In this document: positions 23,044-35,656 of the stretch, piece by piece
Layout: the number at the start of each line of letters is the position of its first letter
How positions within the stretch are numbered: the stretch's first letter is position 1
NCBI GenBank assembly: GCA_964567755.1
Contig: CAZMNW010000061.1
Location: forward strand, 4,890 to 68,889
DNA length: 64,000 bases
Direction of reading: 5' to 3'
From: an uncultured bacterium
GTDB lineage: Bacteria; Krumholzibacteriota; Krumholzibacteriia; G020349025
Notes under the pieces: generated by a model
Seen by the model: only the letters and a program-made list of their open reading frames with translations
What the model was told of the DNA's origin: nothing
Database searches by the model: none
Made by a program: the position numbers and the translations under genes

Positions 23044-24525
23044 TCAGCGCTGTGCGAGGCGTGTGGCGATGGCCTCGGCTTCCTTGATGCAAGCATTCAT
23101 CGCGATGCCGCGATAGGAATTGCCCGAAAGATGCAGACCGATGTGCCGTTGGAGAGCGGTGTCGATGCGCGCCAACGTGCGCGCATGACCCACAGGGTAT
23201 TGAGGAATGCCTCGCGGATGACGGATGACGCCAAGGACCTCGGGGTCGCCGTGCAGATTCAAGAGCCGATGCAGCGTGGTGAGCGCGCGCTGCGTGAGCT
23301 GGGCGTCGGTTTCCTCGACAGCGCCGGGGTCGCGTGCACCTCCAATCATCGTGCGCAGCAGCACCTGCCCGTCTCGTGCACGGCCCGGAAAGACCCAGGA
23401 GTCGAAGAGCGTGCCGAGAATCGGCAGTTTCTCGCAGGCTGGTACCAGGAAGCCGAAGCCACGGCTCACATGCTGCAAATCCTGGGCGCGGAAATCGAGG
23501 CACACTACCGCCACCGGGGCTGAAGGGATGCTGACTACCGCGCTCGCCAACTCGGCGTCGAGCGGATGCAGCAGTGCCGCGGCTTTCCATGCCGGGCCTG
23601 CGATCACCACGTCCGTGGCTTCGACACTCTCGCCATCAGGAATCGTCAATCGCCAGCGCGGCTCGCCAAGGTGTGATGCCCCCCGTGCGCCCCCCACAGG
23701 GGCAGGGTCTCCGATCGGCGCAATCGCATCGACCGGTGTGTCCAAGTGCAACCGCGGGCCGAGAGCCTGCACCAAAGCGCGAACGAGCGTTTCCATGCCA
23801 TCGACGAAGGAAGTGAGCGTGCCACCTGGCCCGATGGGACCGCCCGCCGCGCCACGACGATCTCCTTCTCCCCGCGCACCGGCAGTCATGGTCGCGTCCG
23901 GCTCGTCTCTGCTGGCCCGAAGTTCCCGGCGCCGGGCAATCATGGCCTTGAACAAGCCACCGCAACGGCGCTCCATTTCACGCATGCGCGGGAACGCGCA
24001 CTCGAGGCTCAGCGTTCTCGAGTCCCCGGCATAGATCCCGGTCACCATCGCATCGACCAAGACCTCGGCAGCCTCACGGCCGATGCGTCGTGCGGCGAAA
24101 TCGAAAACGGATTCGTCGGCATCTTCCCGTCGCGGGGGTTGCGCCCATTCCAGGAGTACGCGAGCCCTACCGCGCAGGCTCAAGACATCGCTGGTGAGGA
24201 ACTGCGCCGGACGTTGCGGCAGCGCGCGCAAGGCACCGGCGCGCACGATCCAACGAGTGCTCGCGTCACTGCTCGCCTGCACCACCTGAGGCTGCAGTCC
24301 CAGGAACTCGATCAGGCGCGTGGTGGCCGGCTCGTTGTCGAGCCAACCGTTCGGACCCCATTCACACAAGGTGCCGCTACGTCGCTCGCTCCGAATGTTG
24401 CCGCCCGCACGCCCATGGGTCTCGAACACCTGGACGTCGATCCCCAGCCGTTGGAGGTGAAACCCCAAGGCCAAGCCGGAAATGCCGCCGCCCACTACGG
24501 CAACTCGAGTCCGGAGCGTGGCCAT
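23044..24525 (-). CDS. hemG: Protoporphyrinogen oxidase (HemY-type flavoprotein)
   Basis: VGGGISGL FAD motif, EWGPNG, GIYAGD and GNSYRGIAMNACI. Confidence 0.93.
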   Translation of the reverse strand: MATLRTRVAVVGGGISGLALGFHLQRLGIDVQVFETHGRAGGNIRSERRSGTLCEWGPNGWLDNEPATTRLIEFLGLQPQVVQASSDASTRWIVRAGALRALPQRPAQFLTSDVLSLRGRARVLLEWAQPPRREDADESVFDFAARRIGREAAEVLVDAMVTGIYAGDSRTLSLECAFPRMREMERRCGGLFKAMIARRRELRASRDEPDATMTAGARGEGDRRGAAGGPIGPGGTLTSFVDGMETLVRALVQALGPRLHLDTPVDAIAPIGDPAPVGGARGASHLGEPRWRLTIPDGESVEATDVVIAGPAWKAAALLHPLDAELASAVVSIPSAPVAVVCLDFRAQDLQHVSRGFGFLVPACEKLPILGTLFDSWVFPGRARDGQVLLRTMIGGARDPGAVEETDAQLTQRALTTLHRLLNLHGDPEVLGVIRHPRGIPQYPVGHARTLARIDTALQRHIGLHLSGNSYRGIAMNACIKEAEAIATRLAQR

Positions 24526-24579
24526 GCGAACCACCTGCCGAGGTGCGGCGCCAATGCCCTGGGGCTCGTGGCGGCGCGA

Positions 24580-25980
24580 TCAGATCGTGCGGGAAAACGT
24601 CTTCTCGGTGTCCTTATCCTTCAAGTACCGATCGAACGTCATGGCGATGTTGCGGATGAAGACCCGACCCACGCGGGTGACGGCGATCGTTGCAACATCG
24701 AGATGCAGAAAGCCGCTCTGCTCATGTGCGCGCAGGCCTTCGAGTTCGGCGGCGAAATAGGTGCCGAAGTCGAGTCCGAAGCGCCGCTCGACGTCCTGGA
24801 GATCGAGATGGAAGTTGCACATGATCTGAGTGATCACGTGCCGGCGAATGGCGTCGTCCGACGACAGCAGCACGCCACGCAGCACCGGCAGGCGATCGGC
24901 GCGCAACGAATCGTAATAGGAATCTTGGTTCTTGTGGTTCTGGATGTAGGCGCCCTGAAGGTCGCCGATGCCGGAAACACCGAAAGCGATGGCATCGGTC
25001 GCGGGCTTGACCGTGTAGCCCATGAAGTTGCGGTGCAGCACCCGGTTCTGCAAGGCGCGGGCCATCTCGTCGCTGGGCAACGCGAAGTGATCCATGCCGA
25101 TCTGCACGTAGCCGGCATCCGTGAACTTGCGCACGCCGAGGAGGTAGAGCTCCACCTTCAGCTCCGGCGGCGGCAGCATGTCTTCGGTCATGACGTTCTG
25201 GTTGCCGGATTTCCATGGTACGAAGGCGAAGCTGTACATCGCCACGCGCTCGGGACGCATGCCGAGGACCGAGTCGAGCGTGCGCTCGAACGTGACGCAG
25301 GTCTGCAGCGGCAAACCATAGATGAGATCGACGTTGATGCTGTCGAAGCCCTGGCGGCGACTGTAGTCGAAGAGCTCGCGCGTGCCGGGCTCGTCCTGAT
25401 AGCGGCTGATGATGGCTTGCACCTCGGGGGTGAAGTCCTGCACCCCCATGCTGAGCCGGTTGAAACCGAACTCGCGCAAGACATCGATATGCTCCTGCGT
25501 GGTGACGCGTGGATCGACCTCGATGGCGACCTCGGCCTCGGGAAGGATCTCGAAGCGGTCGAGGACGGTTTGATGCAACTGGCGCATTTCCGCCGGTGAG
25601 TAATAGGTGGGTGTGCCCCCGCCCCAGTGGTACTGCGCCACCTGGCGCCGGTGCGGCAGATGCTTGCTCACGAGGTCGATCTCGCGCTGGAGGTATCCCA
25701 GGTACTCGAGTGCGCGCTCGCGTTTCTTGGTGATGACTACGTGGCAGCCGCAGAAGGTGCAACGCTCGTGACAGAAGGGCAGGTGAAAATACAGCGACAG
25801 CGGTTCGTTCGCGTGCGTGTCCGCCTCGGCGAGCTTGCCCTGGTAATCGGCTTCGCCTACGCCGGCATGAAACTCCACCGCTGTGGGATAGGACGTGTAG
25901 CGCGGCCCTGGCCGATCGAACCTGCGGATCAGCTCCGCTGTCAGCTCGGGCTCTGGAGGATGCGCCTGCGAGGGTCTCAT
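24580..25980 (-). CDS. hemN: Oxygen-independent coproporphyrinogen III oxidase
   Basis: GPRYTSYPTA, HLPFCHERCTFCGC, WGGGTPT and RNFMGY. Confidence 0.96.
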   Translation of the reverse strand: MRPSQAHPPEPELTAELIRRFDRPGPRYTSYPTAVEFHAGVGEADYQGKLAEADTHANEPLSLYFHLPFCHERCTFCGCHVVITKKRERALEYLGYLQREIDLVSKHLPHRRQVAQYHWGGGTPTYYSPAEMRQLHQTVLDRFEILPEAEVAIEVDPRVTTQEHIDVLREFGFNRLSMGVQDFTPEVQAIISRYQDEPGTRELFDYSRRQGFDSINVDLIYGLPLQTCVTFERTLDSVLGMRPERVAMYSFAFVPWKSGNQNVMTEDMLPPPELKVELYLLGVRKFTDAGYVQIGMDHFALPSDEMARALQNRVLHRNFMGYTVKPATDAIAFGVSGIGDLQGAYIQNHKNQDSYYDSLRADRLPVLRGVLLSSDDAIRRHVITQIMCNFHLDLQDVERRFGLDFGTYFAAELEGLRAHEQSGFLHLDVATIAVTRVGRVFIRNIAMTFDRYLKDKDTEKTFSRTI

Positions 25981-26098
25981 GGATGTCACGGCTTCTTTGC
26001 GATCCGGGTGAGCACACTGGAGCAACTCTCAGATGGAATATACGGACCCGGCTTGCCGACGACCACCCCGTGAGGGGTGCGGGTGCGGGCTCTGGCCC

Positions 26099-26136
26099 AA
26101 AAAAGCCAGAGGCCCCGTCTGCACGGGGCCCCTGGT
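26099..26136 (-). terminator. Rho-independent terminator of the PEP-CTERM gene
   Basis: On the minus strand, CCAGGGGCCCCGT-GCAG-ACGGGGCCTCTGG is followed by CTTTTTT. Confidence 0.8.
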
Positions 26137-26159
26137 TTCTTGCTCGATGAGGGAAGGGG

Positions 26160-26885
26160 TTACGACCTACGACGGCGTTTGCGCGCCAGGCCGGCGCTCG
26201 CCATGCCCACGCCCAAGAGGACGAGAGTCGTGGGTTCGGGGACGGCGTGTTCTGCGTCGTGCGAGAACGGTGCGAAGGCGTTGACGAGATCCTTGTCCGT
26301 GCCGGTGGCCGTGGGATCGAACGTGCCATCGCCTCTGGTGACGAACAGATCCATATGGATCCCGGTCACTGACGCGTCCAGGGAATTGATGGTGAAGTCG
26401 AACGCCTCGGCGTAGCCATCGCCAGGATCGCCGCCAGGAGGCTGGGTATTGAAAATGGTCTGCACAGAGCCGTCGAACTGGAACTCATAGATCTCGAAAT
26501 AGGTGTCGAAGATTCCGTGCGGCGCGAGAGAATTGTTGTCCTGGATCGGTGGATTGCCGAACCCCGAAGTAAACAGGGACAATGCGCCGCCATCGTTTTC
26601 GACGCTGACATCGAAACCATCGAAGTTGATCATGGGCACTGCCGAGACCACGAGATAGGCGTTCCGCGTCGCGGCGCCAGCCGCCTCCCACGCGAAATCA
26701 CCGTTGCCGGGTGACGCGTTCGCATAGGCGAATAGGCTGAACGGATTCGTGTTGGTGAACCAGGTCTGGCTTCCCACGTTATACGACCACGAACCGACAC
26801 CTGGACCCAACTGCAGTGACGGCAAGGCGTACGCCGAACCGCCGAACGTTCCCAGGAGGACGAGAGTGACGATTAGTCTTTTCAT
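26160..26885 (-). CDS. PEP-CTERM surface protein (passenger resembles choice-of-anchor N type)
   Basis: Signal peptide; C-terminal AVPEPTTLVLLGVGMASAGL-ARKRRRRS. Confidence 0.92.
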   Translation of the reverse strand: MKRLIVTLVLLGTFGGSAYALPSLQLGPGVGSWSYNVGSQTWFTNTNPFSLFAYANASPGNGDFAWEAAGAATRNAYLVVSAVPMINFDGFDVSVENDGGALSLFTSGFGNPPIQDNNSLAPHGIFDTYFEIYEFQFDGSVQTIFNTQPPGGDPGDGYAEAFDFTINSLDASVTGIHMDLFVTRGDGTFDPTATGTDKDLVNAFAPFSHDAEHAVPEPTTLVLLGVGMASAGLARKRRRRS

Positions 26886-26923
26886 GATTTCCCTCCGATA
26901 GTCTTTTCATGATTTCCCTCCGA
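26874..26923. repeat. Perfect 25-bp tandem duplication covering the RBS and first four codons of the PEP-CTERM gene
   Basis: TAGTCTTTTCATGATTTCCCTCCGA occurs at 26874-26898 and again at 26899-26923. Confidence 0.95.
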
Positions 26924-26959
26924 GCAAGATCAGGACATGGTAACCCTTGTTCTCCACGC

Positions 26960-26975
26960 AGCAATGACGGTGCCG
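26960..26975 (-). promoter_or_regulatory. Putative sigma54 (-24/-12) promoter of the PEP-CTERM gene
   Basis: Minus strand reads CGGCAC-CGTCA-TTGCT, versus consensus TGGCAC-N5-TTGCW. Confidence 0.7.
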
Positions 26976-27287
26976 TCTTGTAACTGCATGTTTTTGTGCT
27001 GTTTAACAAAAACGCATCAGGTTATTTGTAAAGAGTTCCAACACCTGATCGGGGGGCGCCCTCTGTCCACCTCAGGGTCCACCCGCGAGTGGCTCTCAGG
27101 GCCCTCTGCGGGCGGCTCTGCGAGGCGAGCTCCCAAGTCTCCATGGATGCCAGAAAATGTCGGGTGTAAGGACTGGGCGAACTGCCGACATCGCGAGGAA
27201 TACGGAGTCGGCGTCACAAAACAGCATAAGATTATTTATTACAGCAATTTATATCGATACCGACGCCAGTGAGACGCTGCCGGATGG

Positions 27288-27305
27288 GTGTCGTCTTTCT
27301 GACAC
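27288..27305. promoter_or_regulatory. Putative enhancer (UAS) palindrome for a sigma54 activator
   Basis: GTGTC-N8-GACAC (TGT-N10-ACA), about 310 bp upstream of the -24 box, with AT-rich tracts in between. Confidence 0.45.
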
Positions 27306-27356
27306 ATTCAGGCAGAGTCTGCGCCCCCGGCTTCTGTGCGCCGGCCGCCAGTCCCG

Positions 27357-28679
27357 TCAAAGACGCCGTAAGAGGTGATGTCCGATGAGGGGGCGACCCT
27401 TCGAATCCCTGACGTGCACCAAGTCCTCGGGGACGAGGTCCAGCTTCTCGAACAAGGCAGTCAGGGCGTCGTCGCTGTAGCGCCGGGTGAAGAGCATGGT
27501 GCGAATCCGCTGCTGCATTTTCTCTTCCTGGATGACCAGGTCGTGACAAAAGTTCACACTGCCCGGAACCTTGCAGCTGTCGTCCCCACCATCATAGCGC
27601 TGCAAGGTCACGCGCAAGTTCACTTCGCGCGGCAGCCGTCCCTGCGAGACTTCCCACACGCGATACGGCATCTCGAGGAGCGTTGCGCGGGTGGATTCTT
27701 CCGCCGTGCGCTCGCCTTTCGACACCGTCATCGGGTAGACGGGGTCGCTTTCGATGGGATCGAGCTTGCGGGCGACTTCGATCCAGACTAAGTCGCCGGG
27801 GCGTGTGAGGCGGTGGAGTGTGTGCCGAATGAAGGATTCCTCGTCGCGCACGTTGCCGAGGATGTTGCCAAGAACGAGAACGATGCGGCACCCATCGGTC
27901 CGTTGATCCCCGGCCAAGCGCGACACGAAGTCGAGCTTCCCGTACTCGAAATCGGCGCACACGGGGATCATCTGCCGCATTCCGGCACCGCGAGCCACCC
28001 ACAGGTTCGGTTCCGACAACGCCCGCTTCGCCGCTTTGAGGAGCAAGGGCATGGAGAGATCCACCGGCATGTAGGTGAGCCAGGCGAAGGGGCGGTGCAA
28101 CTGCTGTTCGCGCTGCACGACCTTGCGCAGGATGCGAGATTCCTTCTCGCCTTCTCCCGGACCCAGGCTTATGACCTCGACCCCTTGGCCCTCGCGCAGG
28201 GACCCCAACCATTTTTCGGCGCAGCGCTCGACGCCATGCAGCCATTCTTCCTGGCCGTAGCCGCGCTTGATCAGATTCTCCCAGGCGAGCGCGCAGTGCG
28301 GGTCGTAGTAGAGGAACCGGTGCCCAAGGTAGGAATCGTGATGGTACTTGTCACCGAACTGACGCAGTAGCTCCGAAGGCCCCGCCCCTTCTTCCACCTC
28401 CAGCCTGACCGACGTCGAATTCGGGTCGACGGAGTGCGTCTGCGCCAAAATGGAACCCAGATGCGCCGCCAAGGCGCGTTTCACCCCTTCGAGCGTCACG
28501 AGCTTGAGGTTCTCGCCGAGCCCCTTCTTCCAGTTCTTGACCTGCTCGCGGGAGACGCCGACCAGATCGGCGATCTCCTGATCGTCGGTGATGCGCAAGA
28601 CGCCGAGCAGGTGCAGCAGCAAGTCGATGACTTGGCTAGATGGAGCGCCACGGATCTCCCTTTCGGCCTTTTTGGTCAT
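27357..28679 (-). CDS. N-terminal HTH domain fused to an EgtD-like (L-histidine N-alpha-methyltransferase family) SAM-binding domain
   Basis: DQEIADLVGVSREQVKNWKKG HTH; ISLGPGEGEKE, VDLSMPLL, CADFE, LGNILGN and PGD methyltransferase motifs. Confidence 0.72.
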   Translation of the reverse strand: MTKKAEREIRGAPSSQVIDLLLHLLGVLRITDDQEIADLVGVSREQVKNWKKGLGENLKLVTLEGVKRALAAHLGSILAQTHSVDPNSTSVRLEVEEGAGPSELLRQFGDKYHHDSYLGHRFLYYDPHCALAWENLIKRGYGQEEWLHGVERCAEKWLGSLREGQGVEVISLGPGEGEKESRILRKVVQREQQLHRPFAWLTYMPVDLSMPLLLKAAKRALSEPNLWVARGAGMRQMIPVCADFEYGKLDFVSRLAGDQRTDGCRIVLVLGNILGNVRDEESFIRHTLHRLTRPGDLVWIEVARKLDPIESDPVYPMTVSKGERTAEESTRATLLEMPYRVWEVSQGRLPREVNLRVTLQRYDGGDDSCKVPGSVNFCHDLVIQEEKMQQRIRTMLFTRRYSDDALTALFEKLDLVPEDLVHVRDSKGRPLIGHHLLRRL

Positions 28680-28792
28680 CCCGCGCCTTCTTTCGCCTCG
28701 GGGCACCCTTTTTTCGCGCTGGCCGATTGCTTTTCCAGTTGGGAACGGATCGGGGCCTGCATACGCTTGGTTGTAGCGAGAGTCCAGACCGC

Positions 28793-28891
28793 TTCGACGA
28801 TCTCAACGGGGTCTCTCGGTGGGGACAGCCTCCAGCTCGCGGAGGATACAGCGCCGCCGAGGAGCACGCCAAGCAGAGACCCCGTGTCGAA
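28793..28891. other. Candidate structured RNA or cis-element in the divergent intergenic region
   Basis: Nested helices TTCGAC/GTCGAA, ACGGGGTCTCT/AGAGACCCCGT, CGGTGG/CCGCCG and CCTCC/GGAGG. Confidence 0.4.
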
Positions 28892-28968
28892 ACGAACACT
28901 CCCGCGGTCCAGCGGACAACGCCAGAGCAGGCCGGGCTGACCGGCCCCGGTGAGAAAGGAAGAGAGCC

Positions 28969-30249
28969 ATGCGTCCACTCGTCCTCGCAACGCTCCTGGT
29001 TGCATCGTTGAGCTCGGCCCCCCGGTCCGCGATGGCGGACCACGGCGACGTGATCTTCGTCGACTTTCCGGAGCTGGCCGAGTTCGGATACCTCGTGGTG
29101 ATCGATGGGGCGGAGTATTGGGCGCCGCACGCGTTTCGCTACGAAGGCAACTGGGCGCCGTACGCGCGCGGCTACCTCTACGAGGATCCGGCCGAGGGCC
29201 TCGTCTGGGTGTCCTCCGATCCCTGGGGATTCATCACCGAACACTACGGGTACTGGCGTCATCACGATCAGTACGGTTACGTGTGGCGCCCGCTCTATCC
29301 GTTGCAATGGCGGCCGTACGTCGCATCGGTGTTCCACAATCAACGCGGCGCTATCATCGGCTGGAGCCCGTTCTATACGGAGGCGTGGGACCATGGATTC
29401 TATCGCGTCGGTTACGGCTTCGACGATAGCTTCTGGGCGCCGTATTGGGGTCGGGTCCATTACGGGGATTTCTACTACCACCACTACCAGCGCTTCTCCG
29501 GCTGGTACGTGGGAGTGACGTTGTACGATTACGACGTCTATTATCGCGACGCCCCCGATCATTGCTATCGGCGCGACTGGGAATACCGCGAGCGGCACGA
29601 GCGCAAGCGCCACGACTCCGGGTCAGCGGCATACGGGTTCCGGGACCGGCGGGAAGCCAAGCGTACTGAACAATCCACCGTGCGGCGGCGCGAGGATGCT
29701 CCGGCACCGGCGGCGGAATTGCGCGGGGCGGTGTCCATGCCAGCGCGAAACTTGGAGGTCGCACGCGAGACTCGGGAGAATCGTCAGCGCACCTTCGCGC
29801 AGAGGTTCGACACGAGCCGGGTGAAGTCGAGCGATGTGCAGCGGCCGGCCGCCACCCGGGCCGCGGCTCCTGCACGTCCGGCGGCGCAGTCTCCGGCGGA
29901 AAGGGCGCTGGACGTGGTGCAACCGCAACAAGCCGCAAGCTCGCGCAACGCGGAGCCCGTAGCGCATGCACGATCGCAGGCCACGGTCGAGCCGCGCCGT
30001 GTGTCGTTGGAACCGCGGCAACCGCGTGCAGAATCGCGCCGTGCACCCGAGGTGCGGGAGTCGCAACCCTCGCGCCCGGCGCGCGAGGTGCAGGTGACAC
30101 AGCCTTCGCGTCAGGTCGACCGCGGACGCGCGGAGCCTGCCCGATCGAGCCAGGTCGAGGCGAGCCGGTCGCGGCCGAGCAACCCACCGGCGGAGCGCGT
30201 CAAGGCTGCCTTCGAGTCGCGCTCGAAGGACCGAAAGGGGCGAGATTAG
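28969..30249 (+). CDS. Secreted DUF6600-like aromatic-rich protein with a long R/S/P/A-rich disordered tail
   Basis: Signal peptide; WAPYARG...WVSSDPWGFITEHYGYW motif; low-complexity C-terminal half. Confidence 0.75.
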   Translation: MRPLVLATLLVASLSSAPRSAMADHGDVIFVDFPELAEFGYLVVIDGAEYWAPHAFRYEGNWAPYARGYLYEDPAEGLVWVSSDPWGFITEHYGYWRHHDQYGYVWRPLYPLQWRPYVASVFHNQRGAIIGWSPFYTEAWDHGFYRVGYGFDDSFWAPYWGRVHYGDFYYHHYQRFSGWYVGVTLYDYDVYYRDAPDHCYRRDWEYRERHERKRHDSGSAAYGFRDRREAKRTEQSTVRRREDAPAPAAELRGAVSMPARNLEVARETRENRQRTFAQRFDTSRVKSSDVQRPAATRAAAPARPAAQSPAERALDVVQPQQAASSRNAEPVAHARSQATVEPRRVSLEPRQPRAESRRAPEVRESQPSRPAREVQVTQPSRQVDRGRAEPARSSQVEASRSRPSNPPAERVKAAFESRSKDRKGRD

Positions 30250-30410
30250 TCGATCGCCCCTTCGGGCGAGCCGAGGCCCGCGAGAGGATCGCTCGCCGTG
30301 ACTGGAATGGGTGATGCAGGACGCGCATGGTAATCTAGAGTTGGTCCGCCGCGGATTGAGTACCAGCGTTGCCTCCGCGCGCGGTGAGAGCGTCGAGCGC
30401 GGGTGGATGC

Positions 30411-31850
30411 ATGAACCTCGAGCTGCGCCAGCACGTCGGTCTTCTCGTCCTGAGCATCGTCACTGCCACGGCCCTCTCGGGCTGTGGCGACGACGAACCG
30501 CTCATCCCGCCGGAACCCCCTTCGCTGGAGATGCTCGATCTCTCGCTCGAGGTATCGTCCACGTCCGTTCTCATTTCCGACCTGGTCACCGCGAGGATTC
30601 GCGTGGCGGGAGGAGATGCCCGTGGCGAGCTTGCGTCTGCCGTCATCAGCTGGGGTTGGCTCGAAGAATACACGTACCTGTTCGATGATTTAGGTCGTAC
30701 GGAGCTCGATCTGCAGTTTTTCGCTCTCGGCGAGCAGGAGGTTCGCGTCCGCATCCAGCGCAACGGCCAGGAACGCCTGCTGTCGCGCCGGGTCGACGTT
30801 CGGGGTGGTTCGAGCGACGGCTCTTTGGAGATGATCCCGGTCGCCGAAGGACAGTTCCTGCGCGGCGATACCCAAAGCGCGTTCTCGTTTCAGCAGCCAC
30901 AACGGCAAATCCATGTCTCGGAGTTCGCGCTCGCGCGTACCGAGATGACGAACGCGACCTTCGCGCGCGCGATCGATTGGGCAGCTGGGCTCGGGCGTGT
31001 CGAAGCCGCGCCCACCCCGCGCTACCTGGTATGGACGCCGGTCCCCGCAGGCCAGTTGCAAATCATCCTGGATTTCTCCAAGACGGATCTGTCCTGGAAC
31101 GGCTCGGGCGTGTCCGTCGTTCCCGGACGAGAATTCCATCCGATGACAGGCGTTCGATGGTATGGGATGGCCGCTGTCTGCAATTGGCTGAGCGAAATGG
31201 AGGGCCTCGAGCCGTGCTACTCCATCACTCCTTCCGATCCTCTACATCTCTATCTCGTGACCGGCGATTTCAGCCGCAACGGCTACCGGCTGCCGACCGA
31301 GGCCGAGTGGGAGAAGGCGGCGCGCGGTGGGCTGATGCTGCCTGCAGGGGCGAACGACAATCCCGAACGCGACTATCCGTGGGGCGATGAAGATCTCTAT
31401 TTCCCGATCAACGACGAGCTTGCCGACTCCATTCCCACGAGATCGGTGTACGGCTCGCTGCGAGCCAACGTGGCGGCTCCATTTCTGGCAACCAGGCCTC
31501 TCGACCAGTTGATCTTCGGCGGCACACTCCCCGTCGGCAGCTTCCTGCGCGGCCGCGGCCCGTACGGACACGACGATCTGATGGGCAACGTGGCCGAATG
31601 GTGCCACGATTGGTTCGGGGCCGGTTACTACGGTGCTTCTCCCGACGTGGATCCAACGGGGCCGACCGAGTTCTATCCGAGCGTGGATGACTTCAAGGTG
31701 CTGCGGGGCGACAGCTGGTTTGGATCTTACATCCCGGAGTGGAACGCCTTCTCGATCGAAGAGGGTTGTTCCAAACGTCGCTGGGCTGCGTACCACTACG
31801 ATGCGACCTTCGTCGGGTTCCGCGTCGCAAGGTCGCTGCCATCCCCGTGA
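30411..31850 (+). CDS. Lipoprotein with an FGE-sulfatase (SUMF1-like) domain
   Basis: Lipobox LSGC; EMTNATF, YRLPTEAEWEKAARGG, DLMGNVAEW, RGDSW and GFRVAR. Confidence 0.9.
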   Translation: MNLELRQHVGLLVLSIVTATALSGCGDDEPLIPPEPPSLEMLDLSLEVSSTSVLISDLVTARIRVAGGDARGELASAVISWGWLEEYTYLFDDLGRTELDLQFFALGEQEVRVRIQRNGQERLLSRRVDVRGGSSDGSLEMIPVAEGQFLRGDTQSAFSFQQPQRQIHVSEFALARTEMTNATFARAIDWAAGLGRVEAAPTPRYLVWTPVPAGQLQIILDFSKTDLSWNGSGVSVVPGREFHPMTGVRWYGMAAVCNWLSEMEGLEPCYSITPSDPLHLYLVTGDFSRNGYRLPTEAEWEKAARGGLMLPAGANDNPERDYPWGDEDLYFPINDELADSIPTRSVYGSLRANVAAPFLATRPLDQLIFGGTLPVGSFLRGRGPYGHDDLMGNVAEWCHDWFGAGYYGASPDVDPTGPTEFYPSVDDFKVLRGDSWFGSYIPEWNAFSIEEGCSKRRWAAYHYDATFVGFRVARSLPSP

Positions 31851-32833
31851 CTTCAACGCATAACGGATTCGCGGCGCTCGTCGTGATGACACTCGCTGTG
31901 AGTGTGGCGGCGCCATGCTCTGCTGCAGCGGCGGCGCAGCGTGGGGCGAAGATGGACGCGCTCGGACGAACACCCTACGTGGTGGTCCTCGGCATCGCAC
32001 AGGATGGTGGAGTTCCGCAAGCGGGAAGCCGGGAGCATCCAGGCTGGAAGGAACCGTTGGCGCGACGGCGTGTCGTCTGTCTCGCGATCGTGGATCCGGA
32101 ATCTTCCCGACGTTGGATGATCGAAGCGACGCCGGATTTCCCGCAGCAGCTGCAAGCGTTGGATACGCTGGCGGCAGTGACGGCGAAGCCGGGCCTCGAT
32201 GGCATCTTCCTCACCCACGCGCATGTTGGACATTACGCCGGGCTGCTGCATCTGGGGCACGAGGTCATGGGAGCGCGCGCGGTCCCGGTCTATGCCATGC
32301 CGCGGATGCTGGAGTTTCTGCGCACGAACGGGCCGTGGGAGATGCTCACCCAGAGGGGCAACATCGAGCTGCGCGCGCTACAAGAAAGTGAGGCCGTGGA
32401 GTTGACGGCGGACATCCGTGTCGCGCCGTTTCGTGTGCCACATCGACAGGAATACTCCGAAGTCGTGGGCTTCCGCATCCAGGGGCCGCGACGAGCGATC
32501 CTTTTTCTGCCCGACATCGATCGCTGGGAAGACCTGGACGCGATGGGAGTTCGCATCGAGGACCTCATCCGGGGCGTCGACGTCGCCTACCTCGACGCGA
32601 CGTTCTACAGCGATGGCGAGATCCCCGGTCGCGACATGAGCGGGTTCCCGCACCCCTTCATCACGAGAAGCATGGAACGATTCGCCGCACTTCCTGGCCC
32701 GGAGCGCGACAAGATCCGCTTCATTCATCTCAACCACACCAACCCGGTGCTCGACCCCCAAAGCGACGCCCGCCACACCATCGAGTCCCAAGGCTTCCAC
32801 GTCGCGGACGAAATGGAACGCCAGGATCTCTAA
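31847..32833 (+). CDS. Exported MBL-fold metallo-hydrolase, PqqB-like
   Basis: LGIAQDGGVPQ, FLTHAHVGH, VPHR and HLNHTNP; GTGA overlap with the upstream gene. Confidence 0.85.
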   Translation: MTSTHNGFAALVVMTLAVSVAAPCSAAAAAQRGAKMDALGRTPYVVVLGIAQDGGVPQAGSREHPGWKEPLARRRVVCLAIVDPESSRRWMIEATPDFPQQLQALDTLAAVTAKPGLDGIFLTHAHVGHYAGLLHLGHEVMGARAVPVYAMPRMLEFLRTNGPWEMLTQRGNIELRALQESEAVELTADIRVAPFRVPHRQEYSEVVGFRIQGPRRAILFLPDIDRWEDLDAMGVRIEDLIRGVDVAYLDATFYSDGEIPGRDMSGFPHPFITRSMERFAALPGPERDKIRFIHLNHTNPVLDPQSDARHTIESQGFHVADEMERQDL

Positions 32834-32914
32834 GGCCGTGACCCCCGTTTTGGCGCGTGTGTCATGAATGAGTGCCTGGCTCGAAAGGCACCGGACTCAC
32901 GCATGGGGACGCGT

Positions 32915-35656
32915 TCAAGGAGTGTGCGCGGGGGCTGCAGTCGTTGCTTTCGCCTGGGCGAAGGCGCGCCGGATCAGGAACATCCCCGGCTGTTCCGAAA
33001 AGGGCCAGCTCATCGTCGAGGCGTTGGGCACCGCGAAGGCACGCGGCAGCGCGGCGGTGACGTTGGCGTCGTACCAGCCCATGGCACGCTGCAATCCCTC
33101 GCGTTCGAAGACGTCGCAGAAAGCGTAGATCTGCTGCCCGAGTAGCACGTGCGAGCGCAACGGCCCGGCGGGAGTCTGACGCGCGACGTGTTGCAACGCC
33201 GCGACGAGCTCGGAACCGACGAAGAAACGCGGCGGTTGTTGACGCTGCACTCGCGGCGCGTGATCTGCCAGCCACGGCCGGTCGAGAGTCATGATCGGGA
33301 TGTTGGGGGGCAACGCCGGGCGCACGGGGCCGACGAGAAACAACGCCACGCCGGACGGATCGCGCAAGAGCGGTTCGCGCAACTCGGGAACGGCTCCGAG
33401 CTCGCGGCAGCGTTGCGCCAAGATGTTCGCATCTGGTCCGAGCTGCGAGCCCCCGGCCGACGATGATTCTACAATCGCGGTGTCCCCGGTGCCGCGCGGT
33501 GCTGATGTTTGCCAGCCGATGAGAGCGACACCCGGGTTGGCGGGTTGGAAGTCGGCGATGGCCAGCCAGGCGTTTGGGAACACAGTGCAGAAAGTGGTCG
33601 CGATTCCCCAGAAACCTCGTGCGTCGAGCTGGAAGAGCGGCAGCCACTGCGCGAAGATCCCACCGGGCCGCAGGTGTGCCGCGACCGCCTCGAAGTGCTC
33701 TCGCGCGTACAGATTCGCGACTCCGGATCGCCAGGGCACGAAGAGATCGGCTACCACGACATCGAACTGCTCGCGCGTGGCGCGAAAGTACATCCGGCCA
33801 TCTTCGACGACGGTGCGCGCTCGCGGGTGACTGCACAAATCGACGTTCCAGTCGCGAAAGTGCTCACAGGCGAGCTGCATGGTCTGGGCCGAGAGCTCGA
33901 TGGCGGTCAGCGATTCGAGGCGCGGGTCGCGCAGCGCCGCGCTCGCCGTGATGCCGGTGGCCGCACCGATGAAGGCAACTCGCCGCGGTTGCGGATGCAA
34001 AAGGAGTGGCAGATACCCCATCCGTGCCTGCTGCGCGGCGTTGGCGCTGCCTCCGAGCGAATACGTGTTGTTCCACTTGATGCGCCGATCGTGCGCTTGT
34101 TCGATCACGGCGGAAACACCGGCGGAACCGGATCGCCAAGCGACGATGCGCTCGCCGGGATCCAGGTGCGCTGCGGGGAGCGACCACGGTGCGGCAAGAG
34201 TCAACAAGACGACCGCAGCTCCGGCCAAACCGAACAGGAACAATCGCGGTCGCCGGTCGGGCAATCGCGCGGTCGTGACGACGCCCGCCGCGAGAATCAA
34301 CAAACACCACGCTGCGAGCGATCCCCAGAGTCCAAGTCCCGGCATTGCCAAGTGATTGGCGCAGAGGAGACCGAGAAGCGCACCGGCTGCATTCATGCCC
34401 AGAAGCCGTCCCCATGTCGTGCCGATCGAATCGGCAGCCTCGTGCACCGAAGGCCGGGACGCAGCGCGCGCGGTCGAAGGACCAATGGCGCGAAGCTGTG
34501 CCGCACCGGCGCCTGCGAGCACGAGGGGGAACACCCAGCCCGCGAGCACGAAGGGCGGGCCGAGGACGAGGGCGGCGCTGCCGAGCACGCGCGCAATGTA
34601 GATCCAGAAACCGCCGGCGCCACCGCCGAAGGGAGTCATGCCCCCGGTGCTCATGACGAAAAAGCGCGACAGGATCGCCGTACTGCAAGCAGCAAGCAGC
34701 AGGACCAGCGCCAGTTGCTGCCAAGCACGGCGTTCATCGATGACGGAGCGCTGCGTCACGAGGGCGCCCACGGACAGGGCCGCGATGACGACGACCAAGA
34801 CGCTCGCGAACGTGTAGCTCGAGTTGTGCAGCACTTGGCTGAAGAGATGCAGAGCGAGGATCTCGTATCCCAGAACGATGAAACCAGACAGCAGTGCGAT
34901 CCAACTCCAAGCACCGACCCCCGGTGTCCAAGATGCGGTGCACTCGTTTCCAGGGTCGAGCGGCTTCTTTTCCCCGCGCCCGCGCGGGGAGGCGGTACGA
35001 CCTGCCGCTGGCTGCGCTGCAGTGGCGGCTGCAACGCCGTGCGCGATCCGCGGTTTCCTTCCAATGCGAAGCCCGAGCACGGCCAACACGAGACTGAATG
35101 CCATGAGGGCCAGGAATGCACCCCGTAAGCCGAGTGCCGGGATGAAGGCAAAGGTGGTGACGAGGATTCCCGCCGCGCCTCCCAACGTGTTGACACCATA
35201 GATCGCGTTGCCTTCGCGCCCGAGCCGGCCCGCGACGACGGCAGCTTGCCCGAGCGCCGGCAGCGTGCCCCCCATGAAGAACGAGGGAGGGCCGACGAAG
35301 ACGACCGCGAGCAGAGCTTTCACGGCAATTCCGGCGCGCGGATGCAGGAGCACCGGGCCGAAGGCTTGTGCCAAGAACCCCGAGATGTGCTCACCGAAAA
35401 AAGACGGAAGGATCGCGAGCAAGATGCCGAGCTCCAGCAAACCATAGAGACGCCATGGCGAAGCATGGCGTGACACGCGCGGGCCGATCCACACGGCGCC
35501 GGCTGCGAGTGCGAGGAAAAACACGCCGACGACGAGACTGGAAGCGAGTGCCGTGGCGCCGATGATATCCGCGAGCCGCCGCGCCCACAGGATCTCGTAC
35601 CCGAGAGCGACGAAGCCGGACAACAAGGAGACGAACGTGGCGAGCCGCAAGCGCAT
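32915..35656 (-). CDS. Multi-TM membrane protein fused to a spermidine-synthase-like domain
   Basis: SGFVALGYEILWAR repeated TM units; EDGR, FDVVVADLFVPW, LYAREHF and PGGIFAQWLP. Confidence 0.88.
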   Translation of the reverse strand: MRLRLATFVSLLSGFVALGYEILWARRLADIIGATALASSLVVGVFFLALAAGAVWIGPRVSRHASPWRLYGLLELGILLAILPSFFGEHISGFLAQAFGPVLLHPRAGIAVKALLAVVFVGPPSFFMGGTLPALGQAAVVAGRLGREGNAIYGVNTLGGAAGILVTTFAFIPALGLRGAFLALMAFSLVLAVLGLRIGRKPRIAHGVAAATAAQPAAGRTASPRGRGEKKPLDPGNECTASWTPGVGAWSWIALLSGFIVLGYEILALHLFSQVLHNSSYTFASVLVVVIAALSVGALVTQRSVIDERRAWQQLALVLLLAACSTAILSRFFVMSTGGMTPFGGGAGGFWIYIARVLGSAALVLGPPFVLAGWVFPLVLAGAGAAQLRAIGPSTARAASRPSVHEAADSIGTTWGRLLGMNAAGALLGLLCANHLAMPGLGLWGSLAAWCLLILAAGVVTTARLPDRRPRLFLFGLAGAAVVLLTLAAPWSLPAAHLDPGERIVAWRSGSAGVSAVIEQAHDRRIKWNNTYSLGGSANAAQQARMGYLPLLLHPQPRRVAFIGAATGITASAALRDPRLESLTAIELSAQTMQLACEHFRDWNVDLCSHPRARTVVEDGRMYFRATREQFDVVVADLFVPWRSGVANLYAREHFEAVAAHLRPGGIFAQWLPLFQLDARGFWGIATTFCTVFPNAWLAIADFQPANPGVALIGWQTSAPRGTGDTAIVESSSAGGSQLGPDANILAQRCRELGAVPELREPLLRDPSGVALFLVGPVRPALPPNIPIMTLDRPWLADHAPRVQRQQPPRFFVGSELVAALQHVARQTPAGPLRSHVLLGQQIYAFCDVFEREGLQRAMGWYDANVTAALPRAFAVPNASTMSWPFSEQPGMFLIRRAFAQAKATTAAPAHTP

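Follow-up and report, generated by a model that had tools for sequence, protein, structure and literature searches.

Positions 27357-28679 of the window, by which we mean the whole 64,000-nucleotide stretch analysed here (contig CAZMNW010000061.1, from an uncultured bacterium of the Krumholzibacteriota), hold a minus-strand open reading frame (ORF) for a 440-codon protein (440 amino acids plus the stop codon). Judged from its sequence, this is a real, conserved and unstudied protein, which joins a DNA-binding-like domain of the phage-repressor type to a divergent copy of EgtD, the L-histidine N-alpha-methyltransferase of ergothioneine synthesis. An original prediction, made from the letters of the window alone, had proposed an XRE-like helix-turn-helix (HTH) and an EgtD-family domain in one protein. 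Profile comparisons, Foldseek searches and the architecture of relatives now agree with that proposal, and the motifs it quoted (SLGPGEGEKE, VDLS, ADFE, LGNILGN and PGD) are all present, the last of them as part of an (R)PGD motif at residues 293-296. The gene, called the fusion gene below, and the parts of its product are arranged as follows, with the evidence for each in brackets.

27357-28679, minus strand: coding sequence of the HTH-EgtD-like fusion protein (ORF, translation, start common to orthologues, homologues, low RNA-like coverage)
28644-28679, minus strand: basic N-terminal arm, residues 1-12, MTKKAEREIRGA (orthologue N-termini)
28515-28643, minus strand: XRE/Cro-C1-type HTH, residues 13-55, with helices at residues 16-27, 33-40 and 44-51 (AlphaFold2, profile matches, Foldseek)
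28443-28502, minus strand: long helix 4 or linker, residues 60-79, from the HTH to the methyltransferase domain (AlphaFold2 models, conservation)
27360-28394, minus strand: EgtD-fold (Methyltransf_33) domain, residues ~96-440 (Pfam, hhalign, Foldseek, ratio of nonsynonymous to synonymous substitution rates, dN/dS)
28257-28331, minus strand: signature YLGHRFLYY..ALAWENL..GY, residues 117-141 (invariant columns)
28140-28169, minus strand: S-adenosylmethionine (SAM) motif I, SLGPGEGEKE, residues 171-180 (hhalign, conservation)
28053-28067, minus strand: SAM motif II, PVDLS, residues 205-209 (hhalign, conservation)
27945-27959, minus strand: SAM motif III, CADFE, residues 241-245 (hhalign, conservation)
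27837-27872, minus strand: LGNILGNVRDEE, residues 270-281, including LGNILGN at 270-276 (hhalign, conservation)
27477-27500, minus strand: strand TMLFTRRY, residues 394-401, the counterpart of the EgtD strand with Glu282 and Ser284 (hhalign; exact register uncertain)

The ATG at 28679 is the start codon kept in five orthologues. A GTG lies 27 nt upstream, at 28706; in the 80%-identical orthologues it does not share the reading frame, and the ATG was therefore taken as the start. The gene is single-copy in the genome, and within the genus both domains are under purifying selection, the methyltransferase domain (dN/dS 0.05-0.12) more strongly than the N-terminal arm and HTH (0.24-0.36). We found no paper on a fusion of an HTH to an EgtD-like or Methyltransf_33 domain, or on the family.

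The methyltransferase domain

The Pfam model PF10017 (Methyltransf_33) matches residues 166-287 over its positions 62-163 of 304 with a score of 32.1 bits (E 7.9e-8), its gathering threshold being 23 bits, and it matches all of the 30 aligned family members. Searches of the PDB with the protein or with the family profile did not reach EgtD, and the EgtD-like assignment was therefore reached by comparing profiles with profiles. The family was aligned by hhalign with 21 true EgtD sequences, taken from genomes of the phylum and including M. smegmatis EgtD. The two profiles match with a probability of 98.1% (E 1e-13); the 311 aligned columns start near residue 100, run to the C-terminus and span the whole EgtD domain. 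A profile of 83 relatives outside the family, described below, matches EgtD more strongly still (probability 99.8%, E 1.4e-28).

A full-length AlphaFold2 model built on 30 homologues has a predicted local distance difference test (pLDDT) score of 85.4 and a predicted template modelling (pTM) score of 0.82. When it was compared with the PDB by Foldseek, the best 15 matches were all EgtD structures, the top one with an E-value of 1.6e-13 and a template modelling (TM) score of 0.74 on the target, at a sequence identity of 12-14% to the EgtD structures. Next in the list come generic or unrelated class I methyltransferases with TM scores of 0.62 or less. Foldseek and hhalign thus both recover the EgtD fold, a Rossmann SAM domain with a substrate-binding lid, and on these models and profiles the C-terminal 345 residues are predicted to form a complete, very divergent EgtD-fold domain.

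The family also has invariant motifs of its own: YLGHRF, RDEE, NFCHDL and TMLxxRRY. An insert of about 22 residues (consensus ..RDxxGxxKGPIAxALGxxRR..) precedes SAM motif I in most Myxococcota members (28 of the 30 aligned), at alignment columns ~215-240; the Krumholzibacteria clade is without it.

Equivalents of the EgtD active-site residues

The roles of the EgtD residues were taken from PMC8593015 and conservation was counted over 30 family members; the register of the N-terminal part (Tyr39, Phe47 and Tyr56) was set by the profile of the 83 relatives against EgtD. In EgtD, Gly86 and Asp113 contact SAM and Phe142 stacks on its adenine (PMC8593015). The corresponding residues of the fusion protein are G173, D207 and the pair D243/F244, which matches the EgtD Asp-Phe pair ending at Phe142. 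All are invariant (30/30), and every alignable SAM-binding residue of EgtD is kept.

On the substrate side, Asn166 of EgtD binds the alpha-amino group, Tyr39 touches the alpha-carbon, Phe47 is an aromatic residue of the pocket, Tyr56 and Ser284 bind the carboxylate, and Tyr206 is among the residues that bind the backbone (PMC8593015). N276, Y124, W133 and Y141 take the places of Asn166, Tyr39, Phe47 and Tyr56, respectively, and each is invariant in all 30 members. Ser284 falls on position 398, which is kept as Ser or Thr in the 30 members. The imidazole side of the histidine is bound in EgtD by Glu282 and Thr213 with a water molecule (PMC8593015). At the position of Glu282 the family carries an invariant hydrophobic residue, Met395 or Leu396. 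For Tyr206, Thr213 and Met252 no equivalents were assigned, because two profile routes disagree here by about 6 residues.

The resemblance of the pocket to that of EgtD is therefore partial, with the equivalents of Tyr39, Tyr56 and Asn166 kept and that of Glu282 replaced. Going by the mapped residues, the domain could accommodate SAM and an alpha-amino-acid backbone, though not histidine in particular. In the aligned sequences, Glu282, the histidine determinant of EgtD, is replaced in the fusion protein by Met or Leu.

The N-terminal domain

Most orthologues open with a short arm of about 8 residues, rich in Lys and Arg and resembling M-x-K-K, directly before helix 1. Lambda repressor has a DNA-contacting N-terminal arm, which the basic arm of the fusion protein would, by inference, resemble. 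Further along, N49, W50 and G53, in or just after the recognition helix, and K59 are invariant from Myxococcota to Krumholzibacteria, and L63, K67 and L70 of the linker are nearly so.

A profile of residues 12-92 from 31 orthologues matched, in the PDB, the Cro/C1-type domain of hydroxypropylphosphonate epoxidase (HppE; E 1.7e-4) and the antitoxin HigA3 (E 2.7e-3). A separate model of the same residues has a pLDDT of 78.8, and its top 50 Foldseek matches are almost only XRE-family HTH proteins, including HipB, C.Esp1396I, C.BclI, SinR, 434 Cro, P22 C2, ClgR and DdrO. The root mean square deviation from these HTHs is about 2.5 Å over 54-60 residues, with probabilities of up to 0.97. The HTH call rests most strongly on architecture. 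HTH_3-bearing relatives align with the protein from end to end: the match to the set of 83 relatives, which takes in the N-terminus, has a probability of 100% (E 4e-48) over 406 columns. Going by these profiles and models, the N-terminus has the fold of phage-repressor-like, XRE/Cro-type DNA-binding domains.

Relation to ergothioneine synthesis

Against TIGR03438, the NCBIfam equivalog model of EgtD, the fusion protein scores 22.7 bits, far from the cut-off of 290.9. The same genome encodes a true EgtD (346.1 bits; contig C8:161394-162284) and a true EgtB (573 bits, cut-off 360; contig C54:26999-28207), the two genes lying on separate contigs. Also found was a second EgtB-like gene, at C1:108029-109309, just below the cut-off (341.5 vs 360 bits). 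Within the window, a profile scan detected no egtB or egtC, in keeping with the earlier placement of the gene outside any ergothioneine cluster. Of 121 genomes of the phylum, 29 have a true EgtD, whereas the fusion gene is confined to one genus.

With EgtD of M. smegmatis and M. tuberculosis (PDB 4PIO, 4UY5-7, 7SCF; PF10017; TIGR03438) the fusion protein shares the fold over the whole domain, the SAM residues and the equivalents of Tyr39, Tyr56, Asn166 and probably Ser284. Unlike EgtD, it has about 95 extra N-terminal residues with the HTH, motifs of its own (YLGHRF, RDEE, NFCHDL, RRY) and Met or Leu for Glu282, and its gene is not linked to egtB, egtC or egtE and coexists with a true EgtD. 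By sequence comparison, then, the fusion protein is not EgtD and not part of ergothioneine synthesis. Several homologues are named 'L-histidine N(alpha)-methyltransferase' by the NCBI pipeline and 'transcriptional regulator with XRE-family HTH domain' by JGI; the former name wrongly implies ergothioneine synthesis in Myxococcota and other uncultured bacteria.

One gene of the window, that of a lipoprotein with an FGE-sulfatase domain at 30369-31850, was considered as a cryptic EgtB and rejected, as it scores 29.7 bits against the cut-off of 360 and carries a lipoprotein signal.

Relatives of the methyltransferase domain

When 1.84 billion representative proteins were searched, 523 matched at E <=0.001, and the 26 of these at E <=1e-30 are the family proper. 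Among the 83 nearest full-length relatives outside the family, Pfam finds Methyltransf_33 in 71, HTH_3 in 34 and HTH_31 in 33 at significant scores, and a significant XRE HTH thus stands beside the domain in 34 of the 83, in line with the proposed architecture. The other N-terminal domains are TIR of the CAP12/Pycsar type (10), TIR_2 (8), SIR2_2 (1), CHAT (1) and a protein kinase (1). Hence, the HTH-EgtD-like architecture is, on sequence, part of a wider set of proteins with an XRE HTH and Methyltransf_33. Its description in the original prediction as uncharacterised stands in so far as we found no paper on it, but the architecture is not rare, with a family of more than 200 proteins inside this wider set.

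In these relatives the EgtD-like domain is a constant C-terminal module behind swapped output domains, the position that ligand-sensing modules usually take, which supports, but does not prove, that it serves as a sensing module. The TIR parts of the relatives match CBASS and Pycsar effector models in PADLOC, in which the EgtD-like part of the same proteins has no match. Like the TIR effectors of these systems (CAP12/PycTIR), distant relatives carry the same TIR, here fused to the methyltransferase domain, and by analogy these fusions suggest that an EgtD-like module can act as a ligand sensor. The fusion protein of the window differs in having an HTH instead of a TIR, no PADLOC match and no cyclase partner.

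Seven look-ups among the loci of relatives gave six distinct contexts. In four of the six a transporter gene (MFS, SSF or PTR2) lies directly beside the relative's fusion gene: three of these transporter genes are divergent, and the fourth, upstream on the same strand, overlaps it. A regulator that responds to a ligand and acts locally is classically arranged in such a divergent pair. Among the TIR fusions, one shares 11 nt with the SSF transporter gene upstream of it, and an MFS/BT1 transporter gene faces another. Several of the relatives' loci also contain defence or mobile-element genes (SIR2, AAA_5, reverse transcriptase, HNH, ImmA-like, Eco57I-type methylase, Fic and transposases).

At two metagenomic loci, which also carry AAA_5 and SIR2_2 genes, an FGE-sulfatase-domain gene adjoins the HTH-Methyltransf_33 gene, and in the window the FGE-sulfatase gene (30369-31850) is two genes away from the fusion gene. 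EgtB, too, contains an FGE-sulfatase domain. The adjacency may be a coincidence, such genes being abundant in these genomes.

Distribution and origin

The family comprises more than 200 full-length homologues of 430-470 amino acids with 41-47% identity. Apart from one genus of Krumholzibacteria, every member whose source is named belongs to uncultured Myxococcota (Kofleriaceae, Sandaracinaceae, Polyangiales and Haliangium among them). Within the phylum of the window's genome, the fusion gene is present in 3 of 208 genomes, and only in the window's own genus. The four Krumholzibacteria sequences group together in a maximum-likelihood tree (Shimodaira-Hasegawa-like approximate likelihood ratio test, SH-aLRT, 100). 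The stem of their clade is long (1.15 changes per site), and its placement within the Myxococcota lineages has moderate support (92 and 81). The missing 22-residue insert fits such a long stem branch after a transfer.

In two sister genera the genes hemL, hemE, one for a 913-amino-acid membrane protein, hemN and hemY are contiguous. In the window this haem operon is split by a block of about 6.9 kb (26029-32917), which contains the fusion gene, a DUF6600 gene, the FGE-sulfatase lipoprotein gene, a gene for a protein of the metallo-beta-lactamase (MBL) fold and, in this genome only, a PEP-CTERM gene. The boundaries of the block show no direct or inverted repeats. Transfer from Myxococcota is the most economical history because of the one-genus distribution, the nested position in the tree and the operon-splitting block, and the comparison of sequences indicates that the fusion gene probably arrived by horizontal transfer within this block.

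Neighbouring genes and expression

As the original prediction had described, the fusion gene is flanked by a PEP-CTERM gene and a divergent DUF6600 gene. The DUF6600 gene lies at 28969-30249 on the plus strand and is transcribed divergently from the fusion gene; the PEP-CTERM gene, of the 'choice-of-anchor N' kind, is at 26160-26885 on the minus strand. An arrangement of a divergent DUF6600 gene, the fusion gene and hemN-hemY is kept, within the genus only.

A tie between the fusion gene and the PEP-CTERM gene, implied earlier, does not hold. The latter and its flanks (about 1.2 kb of lower G+C, 26026-27356) are absent from the orthologous loci of 94% and 80% identity that were compared, and on these grounds we rejected a link. 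In addition, the PEP-CTERM gene has a sigma-54-like -24/-12 element of its own (GGCAC-N5-TTGCT, 26961-26974, minus strand), its own strong terminator at 26106-26135 and separate coverage.

This coverage comes from two freshwater-sediment runs with an RNA-like, very uneven depth; a DNA run is flat at 33.9x. In the RNA-like runs the PEP-CTERM gene has a word depth of 365-498 and is the deepest gene of 24500-30500, the interval 26912-27440 is close to 0, the fusion gene has about 5 and the DUF6600 side 20-44. The PEP-CTERM gene is thus about 70-100x deeper than the fusion gene. This contrast and the uncovered gap point to weak transcription of the fusion gene, separate from that of the PEP-CTERM gene. 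A metatranscriptome also contains pieces of a related strain's copy of the fusion gene. Local partners of the fusion gene could at most be the DUF6600 operon, divergent from it, and hemN-hemY downstream, and not the PEP-CTERM gene.

Also of note is an exact 25-bp tandem duplication (TAGTCTTTTCATGATTTCCCTCCGA, twice, plus strand) at 26874-26923, as a result of which the PEP-CTERM gene has its ribosome-binding site and ATG twice. One copy fewer is present in the contig that covers this region in a DNA run, and the duplication is therefore either polymorphic or an assembly artefact.

Proposed function and its alternatives

With moderate confidence, we favour a one-component regulator or trigger enzyme as the best reading of the fusion protein; a one-component regulator was also the first of the two readings in the original prediction. 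As predicted from sequence and models, its EgtD-like module would bind SAM, or S-adenosylhomocysteine (SAH), and with it a small, amino-acid-like ligand that is not histidine. Occupancy of the pocket, or turnover in it, would then alter the binding of the XRE HTH to DNA through the long connecting helix, and the protein would thereby switch its target genes. The module might either still transfer methyl groups, as a trigger enzyme would, or only sense its ligand.

The architecture is that of a one-component system, with a DNA-binding-type and a small-molecule-type domain in one polypeptide, and the low RNA-like coverage (~5x) fits a regulator. Like the XRE/Cro-C1 regulators (HipB, SinR, ClgR, C-proteins), the protein has a three-helix HTH with the pattern 'GVS..NV.NW..G' followed by helix 4, and it shares with XRE regulators the N-terminal position of the HTH, a C-terminal effector-type domain and a divergent neighbour gene. 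It differs from them in that we found no described regulator with an EgtD-fold C-terminal module, and in that the family stays below the Pfam HTH thresholds. BirA, PutA and NadR are trigger enzymes, that is, enzymes that double as repressors, a concept reportedly set out by Commichau and Stulke in 2008. The likeness to these consists in an apparently intact small-molecule site and a DNA-binding-type domain in one polypeptide, both predicted, with DNA binding that the ligand or product might set; unlike them, the fusion gene has no linked pathway genes.

A number of observations weigh against this proposal. Pfam HTH models stay below threshold for the family: in the fusion protein only HTH_23 and HTH_28 appear, at E 0.02-0.035 over residues 34-54, and among 30 members HTH_3 is found below threshold in 3, while one member matches Phage_CI_repr at 2.4e-4. 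All Foldseek E-values for the model of residues 12-92 are at least 0.17, as the small size of the domain would lead one to expect. The pocket mapping of the C-terminal half differs by about 6 residues between the direct route and that through the profile of the 83 relatives. At 41 related loci, whose ORFs were clustered all against all, no neighbour is conserved; the most that any is shared is by 9-10 loci, and these common neighbours reflect synteny among close Kofleriaceae. Unfortunately, the searches for an operator gave nothing either. In the 200 bp upstream of 38 Myxococcota orthologues, palindromes (5-mer half-sites with gaps of 0-12) and 7-mers were no commoner than in shuffled sequences, and the intergenic alignment at genus level shows only an A-rich direct repeat, with no operator identified. 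Finally, the depth of assembled contigs is a crude measure of expression.

Two further points against the regulator, namely that HppE comes first among the PDB sequence matches of the N-terminal domain and that the HTH changes faster than the enzyme domain (dN/dS 0.24-0.36 vs 0.05-0.12), speak at the same time for a plain small-molecule N-methyltransferase, a synthase of the betaine type with an amino-acid-like substrate. Its Cro-like domain would no longer bind DNA and would serve folding, oligomerisation or substrate handling as in HppE. HppE (PDB 1ZZ6) combines an enzyme-type domain with an N-terminal Cro/C1-like helical domain; we know of no DNA binding by the latter, and for that reason HppE serves as a cautionary parallel. 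Its catalytic domain is a cupin and not a methyltransferase. A plain enzyme would also suit the invariance of all mappable residues for SAM and the alpha-amino acid, as well as the negative operator search in the 38 Myxococcota upstream regions. We nevertheless think it unlikely, given that N49, W50, G53 and K59 are invariant and the recognition helix is conserved across two phyla, that a basic N-terminal arm is present, that the relatives have canonical HTH_3 or HTH_31 domains, often beside divergent transporter genes, and that no partner biosynthetic genes are conserved alongside at the 41 loci.

The effector-bearing relatives raise another explanation, in which the fusion protein is the transcription-factor member of a conflict or defence group. 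Its EgtD-like domain would sense SAM, or else a change that phages induce in it or in a related metabolite, with gene regulation as the output here and NAD-degrading or proteolytic effectors in the relatives. The 10 CAP12/Pycsar-type TIR, 8 TIR_2, 1 SIR2_2 and 1 CHAT domains among the 83 relatives are consistent with it, and so are the defence or mobile-element genes that adjoin some of these relatives, the patchy distribution and the probable horizontal transfer. However, neither the fusion protein nor the family proper has a match in PADLOC (PADLOC-DB 2.0) or PHROGs, the fusion gene is single-copy, and the Myxococcota loci that were inspected hold housekeeping genes and no defence neighbours. 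Moreover, the relatives with effector domains are remote, matching the family profile at E 1e-8 to 1e-17, and the adjacency to transporters fits metabolism equally well. We consider this explanation rather improbable.

Still more doubtful is the second reading of the original prediction, a DNA-tethered methyltransferase, which would act on DNA or on a DNA-bound protein, for example at an N-terminal alpha-amine, with the HTH for targeting as in the M.SsoII type. In M.SsoII, M.EcoRII and M.MspI an N-terminal HTH, which represses transcription, is joined to a C5-cytosine DNA methyltransferase of a restriction-modification system. The fusion of an HTH to a SAM methyltransferase domain is shared with these enzymes; the invariant H120, R121, R331, R356, H379, R399 and R400 would be compatible with such a role, and we infer that alpha-amine methylation of the EgtD type could in principle hit the N-terminus of a protein. 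The domain is, however, of the small-molecule EgtD type. Its Foldseek neighbours are EgtD and then small-molecule and cap methyltransferases, with no DNA methyltransferase in the top 50, and the EgtD lid region and the amino-acid-binding residues are kept, which argues for a closed small-molecule pocket and makes tethering the less likely of the two earlier readings. Nor is there a restriction gene nearby or any conserved neighbour.

An ordinary histidine methyltransferase, for which the PF10017 match, the EgtD fold and the public name of several homologues might speak, can practically be dismissed in view of the 22.7 vs 290.9 bits, the 12-14% identity to solved EgtD structures, the hydrophobic residue in place of Glu282, the true EgtD and EgtB elsewhere in the same genome and the occurrence of true EgtD in 29 of 121 genomes of the phylum as against one genus for the fusion gene.

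Returning to the regulator with an EgtD-fold sensor or enzyme module, this would, from its sequence, be a module not previously described in that role. If the proposal is true, an enzyme fold otherwise known only from the synthesis of amino-acid betaines (ergothioneine, hypaphorine) is also an input module of transcription factors, and serves as well in relatives that carry TIR, SIR2 and CHAT effector domains. It would then represent a new type of bacterial sensor and a direct route from SAM and amino-acid metabolism to gene control. A broader possibility, which we put forward only tentatively, is that the EgtD fold is a general small-molecule sensor, for SAM or SAH and/or amino-acid-like ligands, with interchangeable XRE HTH, TIR, SIR2 and CHAT outputs. 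This would define a new sensor class common to one-component regulators and immune-type effectors, and could include sensors of phage attack that monitor the SAM pool. Its compact size (440 amino acids) and the good confidence of its model (pLDDT 85) should make the protein easy to produce and assay.

The divergent intergenic region

The presumed promoters of the fusion gene and of its divergent neighbour lie between the two genes.

28680-28968, no strand assigned: divergent intergenic region with the DUF6600 gene, presumed promoters (alignment, RNA-like contig ends)

Among the contigs of the RNA-like runs, one on the DUF6600 side starts at 28792 (177 nt ahead of the start codon of that gene) and one on the fusion-gene side extends to 28711. 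The contig start at 28792 would make 28793-28891 part of the 5' leader of the DUF6600 mRNA. A scan of 26000-29500 against Rfam gave no significant match. The palindrome TTCC-N5-GGAA in this region was considered as an operator and rejected, as it is not kept in the 80% orthologues. Just upstream of the ATG of the fusion gene, a direct repeat, CGAAA(A/G)AAGG, occurs twice on the coding strand with a spacing of 21 nt (28686-28717), and similar A-rich repeats are kept in the 80% orthologues. The repeat could be a leader or ribosome-binding feature, or a candidate binding site.

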